A stretch of 12,776 nt of DNA from a virus (IMGVR_UViG_2690316243_000002), one strand, 5' to 3'. Counted from the first letter of the stretch, positions 5,625 to 9,124 are shown. Made by a program: numbers and translations. Notes: a model not told the origin generated them from the letters alone.

Positions 5625-6063
5625 CTACGGTCCTCCTCCCCGGAGGGGGGCATTTCATTATTTTTCTAATCGTTACTGGTGAGAAGGCGGAAGAAAAAGC
5701 CAGTTCTTCGCCCCTAAATAACAGCATGATTCCAGTCCATGCAAAATCTGATTTCCAGCTCACACATACCGAGCACTGTACAAAAAACCGCCAGCCAAGG
5801 CAGTTAAGAGTGTGTTCCCGGGGTTTGCTTAGAATATTTTGTAAGTTGTCCGAAGAGATATTTACAACACCAGAATGATGAATCATCAGTCCCCTGCCAG
5901 AGGTTCACTACGTAACCTGACCGACAATGCACCATTCTGGTGCTGAAAAAAGAGCACTGGAACTGCAACAAAACAACATCACAGAACAGGAGATGGTAAG
6001 GAGTCAGACATTCCCACACAATATTGTGTCAGTGCAAATAACAACCTTCGTCTCAAATCTCGC

Positions 6064-6138
6064 TGGAGCGGGCAGCGGGAATCGAACCCGCATCATCAGC
6101 TTGGAAGGCTGAGGTAATAGCCATTATACGATGCCCGC
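6064..6138 (-). tRNA. tRNA-Gly (anticodon UCC)
   Basis: Reverse complement reads GCGGGCATCGTATAATGGCTATTACCTCAGCCTTCCAAGCTGATGATGCGGGTTCGATTCCCGCTGCCCGCTCCA: anticodon loop CTTCCAA, acceptor GCGGGCA/TGCCCGC, CCA end; matches host glyT as recalled. Confidence 0.9.
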
Positions 6139-6141
6139 ATA

Positions 6142-6217
6142 TGGTGCCGACTACCGGAATCGAACTGGTGACCTACTGATTACAAGTCAGTTGCTCTGCC
6201 TGCTGAGCTAAGTCGGC
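6142..6217 (-). tRNA. tRNA-Thr (anticodon UGU)
   Basis: Reverse complement reads GCCGACTTAGCTCAGCAGGCAGAGCAACTGACTTGTAATCAGTAGGTCACCAGTTCGATTCCGGTAGTCGGCACCA: anticodon loop CTTGTAA, acceptor GCCGACT/AGTCGGC; thrU-like. Confidence 0.85.
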
Positions 6218-6219
6218 GC

Positions 6220-6296
6220 TGGCCCACCACCGAGGACTCGAACCTCGCACCGTCAACTTAGAAGGTTGATGCTCTATCCGGATGAGCTAGTGGTGG
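6220..6296 (-). tRNA. tRNA-Arg (anticodon UCU)
   Basis: Reverse complement reads CCACCACTAGCTCATCCGGATAGAGCATCAACCTTCTAAGTTGACGGTGCGAGGTTCGAGTCCTCGGTGGTGGGCCA: anticodon stem TCAAC/GTTGA, loop CTTCTAA, T-loop TTCGAGT; unusual C1-G72 acceptor pair. Confidence 0.8.
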
Positions 6297-6297
6297 T

Positions 6298-6374
6298 TGG
6301 TGGCCCTTGCTGGACTTGAACCAGCGACCTGGCGATTATGAGTCGCTCGCTCTGACCAACTGAGCTAAAGGGCC
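6298..6374 (-). tRNA. tRNA-Ile2 (anticodon CAU, probable lysidine tRNA; Met not excluded)
   Basis: Reverse complement reads GGCCCTTTAGCTCAGTTGGTCAGAGCGAGCGACTCATAATCGCCAGGTCGCTGGTTCAAGTCCAGCAAGGGCCACCA: loop CTCATAA; the acceptor stem (C4, C5) and T-arm resemble host ileX rather than elongator tRNA-Met. Confidence 0.75.
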
Positions 6375-6383
6375 GGAGGCAGA

Positions 6384-6412
6384 ATAATAACCATATGTCA
6401 TCACATCTGCAA
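6384..6412 (-). promoter_or_regulatory. candidate sigma70 promoter of the tRNA array
   Basis: Minus strand: TTGCAG (6412..6407), 17-nt spacer, TATTAT (6389..6384); the predicted start falls a few nt upstream of tRNA-Ile position 1 (6374). Confidence 0.45.
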
Positions 6413-6460
6413 ACTCATCTGACCACCAGCACGTTTAACGTCCTGTGCCGTTTTTCAGGT

Positions 6461-6484
6461 ATAAAAAAACCCGCATAAAGCGGG
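6461..6484 (-). terminator. intrinsic terminator downstream of the second Q-like gene
   Basis: Minus strand GAGCCCGC-TTTAT-GCGGG followed by TTTTTTTATACC (plus cccgc 6470-6474, gcggg 6480-6484, A-run 6463-6469). Confidence 0.6.
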
Positions 6485-6563
6485 CTCTTTCAAATGTCCA
6501 TGTCTGCTATTCGCCTCGCGGTACAGCTTTGCGAAGCGTACAAGAATTGAAGCAGTTTTTACG

Positions 6564-7118
6564 TCAAAAAGCAATAACTTTTTTCTCTATACCAAAAGCC
6601 ATAACCATTGGTTTGTACAAAATAAATTCTGCCACCTTTAGCCAATGCTCAATGCGTCTTTCACAGGTTCTTAAACTCCATTTCGGGTGTGCATCATTCA
6701 GCAGTTCAGCCATTTTGCGTTTGGTCATCCCCCGCCCCTCATACCGTTGCCGAAGGACGCTAATCAATCCTGGATGCTCTGCCAGCACCTCACTTATGAC
6801 CCGATCAATACATAACGCCTCTGCATCAGTACAATGCGCCAGCCAGCTCTTTTGCTTACCGTTAATCATATCCCGCAAAAAAGCCTCAAGTTCAGACTTG
6901 TTCAGACCTGCTTTTTTCATCCTCCGGAGCGCCTCGTTAATTGCCGTTTTTGTCAGCTTTTTAGAGGTCAACATCAGGTTAAACATATTCCCCGTCTTAC
7001 CGCCACCAATATACGACCAGCGCCCCCACATACGTAGTTTTCCCTGAATCCAGACACTTTCCAGCGTGGTGAGACGAAGGTGTTCTCCGCTTTTTCCTGT
7101 ATTCGTTGGGTAAATCAT
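6564..7118 (-). CDS. putative late-gene antiterminator, Q-like (second, longer type)
   Basis: ORF 6564..7238; the preferred start is ATG at 7118 (MIYPTNTGKSGEHLRL...) with AGGAGG 7 nt upstream, overlapping the stop of the upstream ORF (ATGA). It shares a W-G-x-W motif (LRMWGRWS) with the QuuD-like protein (ERWGAWA) and sits directly upstream of a terminator, the tRNA array and the lysis genes. Family assignment is uncertain. Confidence 0.5.
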   Translation of the reverse strand: MIYPTNTGKSGEHLRLTTLESVWIQGKLRMWGRWSYIGGGKTGNMFNLMLTSKKLTKTAINEALRRMKKAGLNKSELEAFLRDMINGKQKSWLAHCTDAEALCIDRVISEVLAEHPGLISVLRQRYEGRGMTKRKMAELLNDAHPKWSLRTCERRIEHWLKVAEFILYKPMVMAFGIEKKVIAF

Positions 7119-7372
7119 AAATATCCCTCCTTTCTCCAGATTTCTTGTGTGCGAAAAACACCTTCTGCATGCATCAGGCGTAATTCTTCTTTGGTGTAAT
7201 CGCTGGTTTTTACCCGCCCGTCGATTAAATCGTGGCACGAGCTACAGGCAATCGCTGCCTGCATATCGTGTGGCTTTATCGCTGTTCCGCACGTTCCCGC
7301 CAGTCGGTAATGCGCCAGCACAGACGTTTCCGGATCGTGATTGCAGTAGCCAGGAATTCTGACGGTGCACAT
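7115..7372 (-). CDS. DUF1364 / YbcO-like Cys-rich protein, probably N-terminally truncated
   Basis: 85-aa ORF MCTVRIPGYCNHDPETSVLAHYRLAG...ACSSCHDLIDGRVK...; DUF1364-like motifs as recalled. An in-frame TGA lies at ~7402 with no upstream start, and the IS fragment abuts the 5' side. Confidence 0.55.
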   Translation of the reverse strand: MCTVRIPGYCNHDPETSVLAHYRLAGTCGTAIKPHDMQAAIACSSCHDLIDGRVKTSDYTKEELRLMHAEGVFRTQEIWRKEGYL

Positions 7373-7623: not shown

Positions 7624-7658
7624 TCGAACAATGGCGACAACAATTTCCCATTGAAGCG

Positions 7659-8477
7659 ATGTGTCAGGTATTTGGTGTATCCAGGAGCGGTTATTACAAC
7701 TGGGTACAGCATGAACCCTCAGACAGAAAACAAAGTGATGAGCGGCTAAAACTGGAGATTAAGGTGGCACATATCCGCACTCGCGAAACATATGGAACCC
7801 GGCGGCTCCAGACGGAGCTGGCAGAGAATGGCATCATCGTTGGTCGTGACCGACTGGCACGTCTTCGTAAGGAGCTAAGGCTACGCTGTAAGCAGAAACG
7901 CAAGTTCAGAGCGACTACGAACTCGAACCACAATCTGCCAGTTGCGCCAAATCTGCTGAACCAGACGTTCGCTCCTACAGCACCAAATCAGGTCTGGGTG
8001 GCGGACCTGACGTATGTTGCCACACAGGAGGGATGGTTGTACCTCGCTGGCATCAAAGATGTTTATACGTGCGAAATTGTCGGCTACGCCATGGGAGAGC
8101 GCATGACAAAAGAGCTGACAGGTAAAGCCCTGTTTATGGCGCTCAGGAGCCAGCGCCCACCTGCCGGGCTAATCCACCACTCTGATCGAGGTTCACAGTA
8201 CTGCGCATACGATTACCGGGTCATACAGGAGCAGTCTGGTCTGAAAACATCAATGTCGCGTAAAGGTAACTGTTACGACAACGCTCCGATGGAAAGCTTC
8301 TGGGGAACGCTGAAAAATGAGAGCCTGAGCCACTATCGTTTTAATAACCGGGATGAAGCCATCTCAGTAATACGGGAATACATTGAGATTTTCTACAATC
8401 GTCAGCGTCGTCACTCTCGTCTGGGGAATATCTCCCCGGCAGCCTTCAGGGAAAAATATCATCAGATGGCTGCTTAA
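7659..8477 (+). CDS. IS3-family transposase OrfB (DDE catalytic domain)
   Basis: 272-aa ORF with VWVADLTYV, HHSDRGSQY and YDNAPMESFW motifs (D, D, E); naturally expressed as an OrfAB fusion by -1 frameshifting at the A-run near 7572-7579. Confidence 0.9.
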   Translation: MCQVFGVSRSGYYNWVQHEPSDRKQSDERLKLEIKVAHIRTRETYGTRRLQTELAENGIIVGRDRLARLRKELRLRCKQKRKFRATTNSNHNLPVAPNLLNQTFAPTAPNQVWVADLTYVATQEGWLYLAGIKDVYTCEIVGYAMGERMTKELTGKALFMALRSQRPPAGLIHHSDRGSQYCAYDYRVIQEQSGLKTSMSRKGNCYDNAPMESFWGTLKNESLSHYRFNNRDEAISVIREYIEIFYNRQRRHSRLGNISPAAFREKYHQMAA

Positions 8478-8702
8478 AAAAAGAACAAATGGTAGTGTCC
8501 GCTATTGCCAGTACACCTCACACTCTATCCAACAAACCACCCACAGTTAATCGGAATAAAAGCAGAGTGCTTATGAATGATCGCACGCCCGAAGGTTAGT
8601 ATTTCTGCACAGCAATTTTGCAAAAAAAGGCGATCATTCATAACTTAAACGTCTTTCAGTCACTCCGGGATTTCCCATCATCGCAGACTGAAAGACTCTG
8701 AC

Positions 8703-8777
8703 TGGAGCGGGCAGCGGGAATCGAACCCGCATCATCAGCTTGGAAGGCTGAGGTAATAGCCATTATACGATGCCCGC
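8703..8777 (-). tRNA. tRNA-Gly (anticodon UCC), copy 2
   Basis: Identical to 6064..6138 (offset 2639). Confidence 0.9.
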
Positions 8778-8780
8778 ATA

Positions 8781-8856
8781 TGGTGCCGACTACCGGAATC
8801 GAACTGGTGACCTACTGATTACAAGTCAGTTGCTCTGCCTGCTGAGCTAAGTCGGC
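8781..8856 (-). tRNA. tRNA-Thr (anticodon UGU), copy 2
   Basis: Identical to 6142..6217 (offset 2639). Confidence 0.85.
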
Positions 8857-8858
8857 GC

Positions 8859-8935
8859 TGGCCCACCACCGAGGACTCGAACCTCGCACCGTCAACTTAG
8901 AAGGTTGATGCTCTATCCGGATGAGCTAGTGGTGG
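8859..8935 (-). tRNA. tRNA-Arg (anticodon UCU), copy 2
   Basis: Identical to 6220..6296 (offset 2639). Confidence 0.8.
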
Positions 8936-8936
8936 T

Positions 8937-9013
8937 TGGTGGCCCTTGCTGGACTTGAACCAGCGACCTGGCGATTATGAGTCGCTCGCTCTGACCAACT
9001 GAGCTAAAGGGCC
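8937..9013 (-). tRNA. tRNA-Ile2 (anticodon CAU), copy 2
   Basis: Identical to 6298..6374 (offset 2639). Confidence 0.75.
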
Positions 9014-9022
9014 GGAGGCAGA

Positions 9023-9051
9023 ATAATAACCATATGTCATCACATCTGCAA
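9023..9051 (-). promoter_or_regulatory. candidate sigma70 promoter of tRNA array copy 2
   Basis: Same TTGCAG-17-TATTAT element as 6384..6412, inside the repeat. Confidence 0.45.
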
Positions 9052-9101
9052 ACTCATCTGACCACCAGCACGTTTAACGTCCTGTGCCGTTTTTCAGGTA
9101 T

Positions 9102-9124
9102 AAAAAAACCCGCTCATCGGCGGG
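9102..9124 (-). terminator. intrinsic terminator downstream of the ORF6N-domain gene
   Basis: Minus strand CCCGC-CGATGA-GCGGG followed by TTTTTTTATACC (plus cccgc 9109-9113, gcggg 9120-9124, A-run 9102-9108). It shares the T-run and stem arms with the 6461..6484 terminator; only the loop differs. Confidence 0.6.

Follow-up and report, generated by a model that had tools for sequence, protein, structure and literature searches.

A draft Shigella sonnei scaffold with two Q-like genes and two tRNA arrays very probably merges separate prophage remnants

Genes for tRNAs located downstream of Q have been reported in phages SfI, Sf6, ST64T, PS3 and 21, and ileX-like genes are found near stx in Stx phages. 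Their position between the late antiterminator and the lysis genes has been described together with a rare-codon rationale (PMC3636060). A literature search for ileZ, argN and argO returned nothing. The stretch of DNA analyzed here (the window, 12,776 nucleotides) contains a cassette of four such tRNA genes in two copies, each preceded by a different Q-like gene. A preliminary description had read this layout as a single prophage with two Q genes, two tRNA arrays and one lysis cassette, and had proposed an assembly artifact as the alternative. The window corresponds to the entire record CXCY01000141.1 (assembly GCA_001258795.1), a draft scaffold of five contigs (c1 to c5) joined by Ns, and it comes from a short-read draft genome of Shigella sonnei or of a very near relative. 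We are highly confident that it merges separate S. sonnei prophage remnants through a short-read scaffolding error, and hence that the prophage with two Qs and two arrays is an artifact.

An identical tRNA cassette in two copies

The two cassette copies (Table 1) are identical over 412 bp without a single mismatch and represent the only long exact run at an offset of 2639, with identity lost at once beyond either end. The exact repeat previously noted is thus real, but it is not a tandem duplication, as the copies are in direct orientation with a spacer of 2227 bp. The left edge of the repeat lies 1 nt past the 3′ end of the tRNA-Gly gene, and the right edge falls within the loop of an intrinsic-terminator hairpin, of which the copies hold the 3′ half. 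In each copy ARAGORN identified genes for tRNA-Gly (TCC), tRNA-Thr (TGT), tRNA-Arg (TCT) and a tRNA with a CAT anticodon, all on the minus strand; the last is annotated as tRNA-Ile by PGAP in homologous Escherichia coli loci. A promoter-like sequence, TTTGCA-18-TATTAT (9/12 match), ends 10 nt upstream of the tRNA-Ile2 gene in both copies. These predictions agree with the half terminator, candidate promoter and Ile2-Arg-Thr-Gly genes described earlier for each copy.

The cassette is located on the late-gene strand, with the Q gene on one side and the holin/lysis genes on the other, as is known for tRNA genes of lambdoid late regions. The module is genuine and recurs without change in at least two S. 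sonnei lambdoid prophage remnants, and in part in a third. Assignment as a predicted antiterminator Q is based on a PF06530 match above the gathering score and on a location that makes it the final regulatory gene ahead of the late terminator/lysis region. The usual gene call for Q has 128 residues; a start yielding 135 residues matched just one other draft.

Table 1. Coordinates of contigs, gaps and features in the window
Feature	Position	Strand	Remarks
Contig c1	1-4395	-	portal, TerL, TerS, HNH, Rz 3′ part; assigned to locus 1
Single N	4396		scaffold gap left unfilled
Contig c2	4397-5080	-	Rz 5′ part, RrrD lysozyme (Y127 allele), holin 3′ end
28-N run	5081-5108		gap within holin gene; 32 bp in related loci
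Contig c3	5109-5387	-	holin 5′ part, 113-bp flankB′, IS600 nt 1-5
NN	5388-5389		false join, IS600 left end to flankA
Contig c4	5390-7381	-	interposed block, 1992 bp, between NN and N; flankA (5390-6062), cassette copy A, terminator A, DUF1133, DUF1364/YbcO
Cassette copy A	6063-6474	-	Gly 6064-6138, Thr 6142-6217, Arg 6220-6296, Ile2(CAT) 6298-6374; promoter-like site 6384-6413; terminator 3′ arm and T-tract about 6455-6474
DUF1133	6564-7118	-	PF06576 E 3.8e-107, 356 bits; PF06530 28.4 bits (cut-off 26)
DUF1364/YbcO	7115-7381	-	first 24 nt absent
Single N	7382		joins DUF1364 contig end to IS600 interior
IS600 nt 127-1264	7383-8520	+	orfB 7659-8477; 99.4-100% to IS600 copies
flankB	8521-8701	-	native sequence downstream of cassette in locus 2 type prophages
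Cassette copy B	8702-9113	-	Gly 8703-8777, Thr 8781-8856, Arg 8859-8935, Ile2 8937-9013; promoter-like site 9023-9052; terminator B hairpin 9106-9127
Unique part of locus 1	9114-12776	-	99.95% to locus 1, S. sonnei complete genomes
ORF6N	9203-9766	-	
Q	10247-10633	-	PF06530 E 2.7e-52, 176 bits
RusA	10623-10994	-	
DnaB-like helicase	11248-12639	-	

Contigs, gaps and a split IS600

Three loci of finished genomes account for the pieces of the window. Locus 1 has the order DnaB-RusA-Q-ORF6N-cassette-flankA-holin-RrrD-Rz-HNH-terminase-portal, locus 2 the order DUF1367-DUF1364-DUF1133-cassette-flankB-IS600-flankB′-holin-RrrD(Y127)-Rz, and locus 3 the order DUF1367-DUF1364-DUF1133-(cassette)-flankA-holin-RrrD-Rz-DedA-terminase. 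Contig c1 is 99.93% identical to locus 1 of complete S. sonnei chromosomes, with 3 mismatches, and the N that follows it stands for 16 missing bp (TAACATCACGCTGTCT) present in CP022455.1. Contig c2 has 7 mismatches to locus 1 and 1 to an L008-type cassette, and its exact RrrD protein is found in locus 2/3 of S. sonnei complete genomes; judged by these matches, its allele is of the locus 2/3 type and not that of locus 1. Contig c3 is 100% identical to locus 2 of CP044191.1 and CP022672.1, in which the match is followed by nt 6-126 of IS600 and then directly by the window sequence from 7383 onward. The full length of c4 is 99.75% identical to prophage L003 of E. coli FDAARGOS_944. At the point equivalent to 7382 in finished genomes, the full DUF1364 gene and DUF1367 come next. 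FlankB is 100% identical to L007, L005 and L010, and flankB and flankB′ are unbroken neighbors in L005, an E. coli prophage uninterrupted at this site. Finally, the homologues of the unique part of locus 1 in S. sonnei complete genomes are followed by the cassette and then by flankA and holin.

The first five nucleotides of IS600 (TGAGG, the start of the left inverted repeat) are found at 5383-5387, preceded by CAC at 5380-5382. The right end of the element (...ACACCTCA) is found at 8520 and is followed by a matching CAC at 8521-8523, after which the sequence is the continuation of 5380-5382 in uninterrupted L005. As read from the sequence, 5383-5387 and 7383-8520 are thus parts of a single IS600 copy that entered by a simple insertion and duplicated 3 bp of its target. 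The ends flanking c4 are contiguous in finished genomes. The element has the attributes of the IS3 family, namely, rve and HTH_21 domains in orfB and, with c3 and c5 taken as one copy, its ends and the CAC repeats. OrfA and nt 6-126 are missing from the window.

The apparent truncations of IS600 and DUF1364 meet at the single N at 7382, and the block that ends there has the NN at 5388-5389 at its opposite end. The 5′-truncated IS600 and the N-truncated DUF1364 gene are contig ends and not biological truncations. The IS3-family element, the DUF1364 gene and the second Q-like gene (DUF1133) reported between the repeats are all present, but their truncation is not a property of the DNA. An 85-residue DUF1364 product was discarded as a truncation marker because it is unspecific, gene callers picking that start in intact genes as well. 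The right end of c4 at 7381 matches no repeat boundary identified, a counterpoint to the artifact reading. Divergence of loci 2 and 3 had been predicted at this end of c4, but the two are identical for 164 nt further.

One cassette per locus in finished genomes

Locus 1 was seen in 15 complete S. sonnei assemblies and locus 2 in 8, with the IS600-to-holin part in 7. Both match the window pieces at 99.5 to 100% identity, with a single cassette and a single Q in each. The exact cassette occurs once between ORF6N and flankA/holin (19 loci in the 15 complete assemblies) and once between DUF1133 and flankB (8 assemblies), with IS600 next in every aligned locus 2. Loci 1 and 2 lie about 1.05 to 1.1 Mb apart in the same orientation (CP022455.1, CP032523.1 and CP061367.1). 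The order in CP044191.1 and CP022672.1 is c2, 32 bp, c3, IS600 nt 6-126, window 7383-9113, window 6475-7381 and DUF1367, and all these window pieces match locus 2 of the two genomes at 99.9 to 100%. Contigs c1 to c5 tile onto L026 (locus 1), L043/L046 (locus 2) and L042 (locus 3) at 99.5 to 100% identity, and every switch of locus along this tiling occurs at an N position or within the 412-bp repeat. (HE616528.1 is S. sonnei 53G, CP019689 is 75/02 and CP014099 is FDAARGOS_90.)

The DUF1133 protein gene has a full 96-residue YbcO gene and DUF1367 ahead of it in 10/10 distinct chromosomal contexts listed (28 contigs read), none of which has ORF6N or a PF06530 Q nearby. Pairing of flankA with DUF1133 or of flankB with ORF6N around the cassette is absent from the complete S. 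sonnei loci 1 and 2 examined, and no second cassette was found within 10 kb on either side of the query gene in complete S. sonnei loci. Among 5,426 complete E. coli genomes and 50,697 phage records, none covers at least 80% of the region; no phage record has the two-array layout, and the best matches in that collection are to IS600 copies only.

Three things were observed directly, namely, how the contigs are laid out, that one IS600 copy with a matching target duplication is split, and how the pieces are ordered in finished genomes. The segments are colinear with and near-identical to different loci, with breakpoints at gaps or repeats, as expected of a scaffold mis-join. A segmental duplication would instead have junctions that are read through and a layout found in finished assemblies; here, the junctions are the N at 7382 and the NN at 5388-5389, and each locus has one cassette in the 15 (locus 1) and 8 (locus 2) assemblies. 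Alignment of the modules to prophage genomes, as the preliminary description had advised, thus retrieved separate loci with one cassette and one Q each. Its junction between two lambdoid late-control modules survives as two modules from separate donors with a common tRNA cassette, but not within one prophage: the critical joins are gaps, and the finished loci are at least 1 Mb apart. Nor is a recent duplication supported, since the interposed block splits one IS600 whose ends adjoin in finished genomes. The N joins and the finished S. sonnei chromosomes fit the artifact that had been offered as the alternative.

The cassette, the holin/lysis genes and the multicopy IS600 are common to the loci, so the assembler or scaffolder would have threaded their pieces into one path, dropping the 2-kb contig 5390-7381 into the middle of one IS600 copy. 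The assembly was probably made by a greedy pipeline of the Velvet/SSPACE/GapFiller type, with read pairs presumably too short to span the 412-bp repeat. The paper on the Sanger pipeline, which covers 299 S. sonnei assemblies (405 contigs on average), describes SSPACE and GapFiller as greedy, capable of false joins, and marking joins with Ns. CX-prefixed S. sonnei drafts are credited to the Holt 2012 collection, and the accession series suggests that CXCY01 belongs to this pipeline; a literature search found no paper naming CXCY01. As counterpoints, the finished genomes used for comparison are from strains other than this isolate, and the cassette copies join their flanks seamlessly within c4 and c5, so that the assembler had some reason for this threading.

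Two earlier models were discarded. One, built from E. coli loci only, assumed an L005-type prophage with IS600 and one foreign 2-kb contig; it was ruled out by S. sonnei complete genomes, which show that the cassette exits of the window are swapped by comparison with finished genomes and that c2 and c3 carry locus 2/3 alleles. The other, a single reciprocal crossover between cassettes as the origin of the swapped exits, was rejected because it would delete the interval between the loci, which are direct repeats about 1 Mb apart.

A narrower error, to which we give roughly one chance in four, is that c4 alone is misplaced. Locus 1 of the isolate would then read Q-ORF6N-cassette-flankB-IS600-flankB′-holin-RrrD(Y127)-Rz-terminase, following gene conversion or a double crossover with locus 2 that had the identical cassette at one limit and the homologous lysis genes at the other, and c4 would come from locus 3, whose allele, shared with E. 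coli L003 and distinct from that of locus 1, flankA indeed carries at 5775. If c4 is taken out and IS600 nt 6-126 put back, c5-c3-c2-c1 reads as a coherent late region of a phage into which an IS600 has cleanly inserted; c2 and c3 have the locus 2/3 allele at 7/7 diagnostic sites, unmixed; and all four flank/terminator combinations around the cassette are present in finished genomes, so exchange at the cassette occurs naturally. However, locus 1 with the exact cassette has flankA and not flankB in 15/15 complete assemblies, and the allele switches exactly at the N at 4396, as expected if contigs from different loci were joined. Furthermore, the 2:1 multiplicities (DUF1133 and flankA twice, ORF6N and flankB once) would probably steer a greedy scaffolder to these pairings. 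This version agrees with the artifact verdict and still leaves one cassette and one Q per prophage.

That the scaffold is essentially right is highly improbable. About 2.6 to 2.8 kb (flankB-IS600-DUF1364′-DUF1133-cassette) would have been inserted beside the locus 1 cassette, possibly as an IS600-bounded circle excised from another prophage and recombined at the 412-bp cassette, whose identity would permit it; a single prophage would then possess both Q genes and both arrays. The deposited sequence itself has this order, and in an independent Shigella draft (AFHC01000021.1, L010) an IS600 in the same orientation lies 257 bp upstream of the c4 end point, so that a neighborhood of IS600 and DUF1364 exists somewhere. 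Yet this reading needs an IS600 broken up into nt 1-5 and 127-1264, the loss of nt 6-126, and an exact coincidence of the two new junctions with unsequenced Ns. Moreover, the contig end at 5387 demands a full IS600 (>1.2 kb) next, too big for a 2-N gap linked by short inserts, and the layout is found in none of the complete S. sonnei loci examined and in neither the E. coli nor the phage collection. If true, the late region would combine two antiterminators of unrelated type with a pair of identical tRNA arrays, removable again by recombination.

With the merging of separate remnants as the preferred reading, CXCY01000141.1 is unfit as evidence for a two-Q prophage, duplicated tRNA arrays or truncated IS600 and DUF1364, and any isolated N in such a draft is best regarded as a potential false join. 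What remains is real but ordinary biology, in which several S. sonnei prophage remnants with different Q types carry one and the same four-tRNA cassette.

Relation to known systems

Like the lambdoid tRNA genes downstream of Q, the cassette of the window lies between the late antiterminator and the lysis genes, and its anticodons read the host-rare codons AUA, AGA, ACA and GGA. It differs from them in comprising four tRNAs with their own promoter-like site, and in its occurrence in identical form behind unrelated Q types, a PF06530 Q with ORF6N or DUF1133. The cassette appears to be an exchange point for late-region modules, with alternative modules upstream (terminator A/DUF1133 or terminator B/ORF6N) and downstream (flankA or flankB), as in lambdoid mosaic linker exchange. 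These combinations are a between-genome pattern, unlike a junction within the window, for which they provide no evidence.

The IS600 resembles those of other Shigella prophage remnants in its TGAGG...CCTCA ends and 3-bp CAC target duplication; homologous copies are annotated with an orfA/orfB transposase and programmed frameshift. Unlike usual IS600 copies, it looks 5′-truncated, but only through the loss of nt 6-126 at the scaffold joins. The scaffold itself resembles mis-joins of the SSPACE/GapFiller type, with Ns at every suspect join, contig ends at IS600 or homology boundaries, and pieces that map to separate loci in finished genomes.

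The repeated cassette and its surroundings

Scanning the window at an offset of 2639 revealed a single long exact run, a 412-bp repeat whose identity is lost directly beyond either end. The preliminary description of an exact tandem duplication is right as to identity, but the copies are direct rather than tandem repeats; its account of the record's contents is otherwise accurate. Each copy holds a cassette of four tRNA genes, of which the one with a CAT anticodon is a tRNA-Ile according to the PGAP annotation of homologous loci. On its left the repeat runs to 1 nt beyond the 3′ end of tRNA-Gly; on its right it breaks off in an intrinsic terminator, within the loop. 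Of this terminator, the 3′ arm and T-tract are inside the repeat and common to both copies. The 5′ arms and loops lie outside it and differ, each arm still pairing with the common 3′ arm (predicted folds of -18.4 kcal/mol, z = -4.1, for copy A and -12.2 kcal/mol, z = -1.7, for copy B).

In both copies tRNA-Ile2 is preceded by a promoter-like sequence, TTTGCA-18-TATTAT, which ends 10 nt before it. The higher-scoring match TCGGCA-16-TATAAT (10/12) covers the 3′ end of tRNA-Thr, the spacer and the 5′ part of tRNA-Gly, and is probably due to chance. All phage genes of the window are on the minus strand, and IS600 is on the plus strand. The DnaB-like helicase gene is uninterrupted here; some S. sonnei loci (L019, L031) carry IS600 at the equivalent of 12407-12410.

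Features of the window, in gene order (minus strand), followed by contigs and gaps
Feature	Position	Strand	Remark
DnaB-like helicase, RusA		minus	head of gene order, followed by Q
Q	10247-10633	minus	PF06530
ORF6N	9203-9766	minus
Terminator B	9094-9127	minus
Cassette copy B	8702-9113	minus	tRNA Gly-TCC, Thr-TGT, Arg-TCT, CAT anticodon
Promoter-like match, copy B	8762-8789	minus	TCGGCA-16-TATAAT
flankB	8521-8701		in c5
IS600		plus	after copy B
DUF1364/YbcO		minus	after IS600
DUF1133	6564-7118	minus	also passes Q family threshold
Terminator A	6455-6492	minus
Cassette copy A	6063-6474	minus	same four tRNA genes
Promoter-like match, copy A	6123-6150	minus	TCGGCA-16-TATAAT
flankA	5390-6062		in c4
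Holin		minus	after copy A
RrrD lysozyme	4561-5058	minus
Rz		minus
HNH endonuclease	3722-4072	minus	directly upstream of TerS (Terminase_4) and TerL
TerS, TerL, portal		minus	in that order
c1	1-4395
c2	4397-5080
c3	5109-5387
c4	5390-7381
c5	7383-12776
N positions	4396, 5081-5108, 5388-5389, 7382

Scaffold gaps and a divided IS600

The window comprises all of CXCY01000141.1, a scaffold of the draft assembly GCA_001258795.1. In alignment with a finished chromosome, 16 bases take the place of N4396 and 32 that of the run of 28 Ns. The Ns mark places where the scaffold was left unfilled, rather than ambiguous bases. These two gaps lie in Rz and holin, respectively, so the deposited calls are truncated or altered (149-aa Rz and 54-aa holin in L009). 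The 5′ end of IS600 and the N-terminal end of DUF1364 both stop at N7382, and the opposite end of the same block is NN. The two features reported as a truncated IS3 element and a truncated DUF1364 gene thus simply stop at a scaffold gap.

Contig c3 ends in GGAAAG CAC TGAGG, the last five bases being nt 1-5 of the IS600 left inverted repeat. In c5, IS600 runs from nt 127 to ACACCTCA at 8520, followed by CAC TCTATCC. E. coli prophage L005, which is not interrupted at this site, reads GGAAAG CAC TCTATCC. Taken with the two contig ends, this indicates that IS600 inserted once, in a simple event that duplicated 3 bp of target. The scaffold has c4 (1992 bp) and three Ns in place of IS600 nt 6-126. 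The finished chromosomes CP044191.1 and CP022672.1 run c2, 32 bp, c3, 121 bp (IS600 nt 6-126), 7383..9113, 6475..7381 and DUF1367, every window piece being 99.9-100% identical.

Loci in finished genomes and the deposited order

Look-up of the window's ORF6N, Q, RrrD and DUF1133 proteins led to many chromosomes of 4.8-5.0 Mb; the genomes compared are from strains other than the window's isolate. Three of these chromosomes have names in the literature: HE616528.1 is S. sonnei 53G, CP019689 is 75/02 and CP014099 is FDAARGOS_90. Three prophage remnants were distinguished. Locus 1 reads DnaB-RusA-Q-ORF6N-cassette-flankA-holin-RrrD-Rz-HNH-TerS-TerL-portal and is 99.5-99.95% identical to window positions 12776..8702, 6474..5390 and 5080..1. 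Locus 2 reads DUF1367-DUF1364-DUF1133-cassette-flankB-IS600-flankB′-holin-RrrD(Y127)-Rz, flankB′ being a 113-bp stretch in c3. Locus 3, similar to an E. coli prophage (L003), reads DUF1133-partial cassette-IS-flankA-holin-RrrD-Rz-DedA-terminase.

Three side observations concern these loci. In L039, L040, L041, L044 and L045 (S. sonnei, including 53G), a further IS3-family element of ~1.25 kb is nested in the IS600 of locus 2, at the equivalent of 7704-7706 (3-bp overlap in the alignment). At locus 3 of CP061367.1 (L042/L054), an IS element replaces 374 bp (equivalent of 5930-6303), with loss of tRNA-Gly, Thr and Arg; the cassette retains only its upstream part and tRNA-Ile2. Residue 127 of the window's RrrD protein is Y, as against D in E. 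coli relatives and at S. sonnei locus 1; this exact allele occurs in only 83 indexed blocks and, among the complete genomes shown, belongs to loci 2 and 3 of S. sonnei.

In the fetched loci the exact cassette is always single. At 19 loci (15 assemblies) it stands between the ORF6N-side terminator and flankA, and in 8 assemblies between the DUF1133-side terminator and flankB; none of the fetched loci has the window's own pairings around it. Full-length YbcO and DUF1367 precede DUF1133 in 10 of 10 distinct contexts shown, none with ORF6N or PF06530 Q nearby. No complete E. coli genome or phage record covers at least 80% of the region. As anticipated preliminarily, the modules have separate donors: finished genomes hold them in different loci, ~1.05-1.1 Mb apart and in the same orientation in the three genomes from which both were retrieved.

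The N joins, the split IS600 and the separate finished loci argue against one prophage with two Q genes and two tRNA arrays, and support the alternative also raised preliminarily, that this layout is an assembly artefact. A fully real scaffold order, for which IS600 would have to be broken at nt 5/127 and both junctions would have to coincide with Ns, is very improbable. Within the artefact reading, c4 alone could be misplaced, locus 1 of the isolate having been converted to a flankB-IS600-holin(B) form. In favour of this, contigs c5-c3-c2-c1 are mutually consistent, c2 and c3 are locus 2/3 alleles throughout, and flankA in c4 has the locus 3 allele at 5775; against it, wherever a finished locus 1 carries the exact cassette, flankA adjoins it. 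Either way, there is one cassette and one Q per prophage.

The assembly artefact probably arose from repeats common to the loci, namely multi-copy IS600, the exact cassette and holin/lysis genes 98-99% identical. These were probably mis-resolved by greedy assembly of the Velvet/SSPACE/GapFiller type. We infer this pipeline for the accession; a literature search gave no confirmation of the software behind it. CX-prefixed S. sonnei drafts are attributed in the literature to the Holt 2012 collection. According to the Sanger pipeline paper, Velvet output passes through SSPACE and GapFiller, tools that are greedy and may make false joins, and joins are marked with Ns; 299 S. sonnei assemblies (mean 405 contigs) are listed there. 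With DUF1133 and flankA present twice, versus ORF6N and flankB once, a greedy resolver would pair them as in c4 and c5. In positions 1-925 of an independent Shigella draft (L010, AFHC01000021.1), a like-oriented IS600 lies 257 bp upstream of the position at which c4 ends, and DUF1367 is truncated. A similar strain-specific insertion could be the source of the false link at N7382.

The cassette between late-region modules

Several S. sonnei prophage remnants share the identical cassette, although the Q type ahead of it is one of two. In finished genomes of E. coli and S. sonnei, the upstream terminators and downstream flanks occur in each of the four possible pairings: flankA with terminator A/DUF1133 (L003, E. 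coli FDAARGOS_944), flankA with terminator B (L026, locus 1), flankB with terminator A (L043, locus 2), and flankB with a terminator B-like structure (L005, cassette 98.8% identical). This distribution suggests that late-region modules recombine at the cassette, which would act as a joint between them. tRNA modules downstream of Q are a known kind of lambdoid late-region arrangement, to which the cassette belongs, and module exchange around it is ordinary phage mosaicism.
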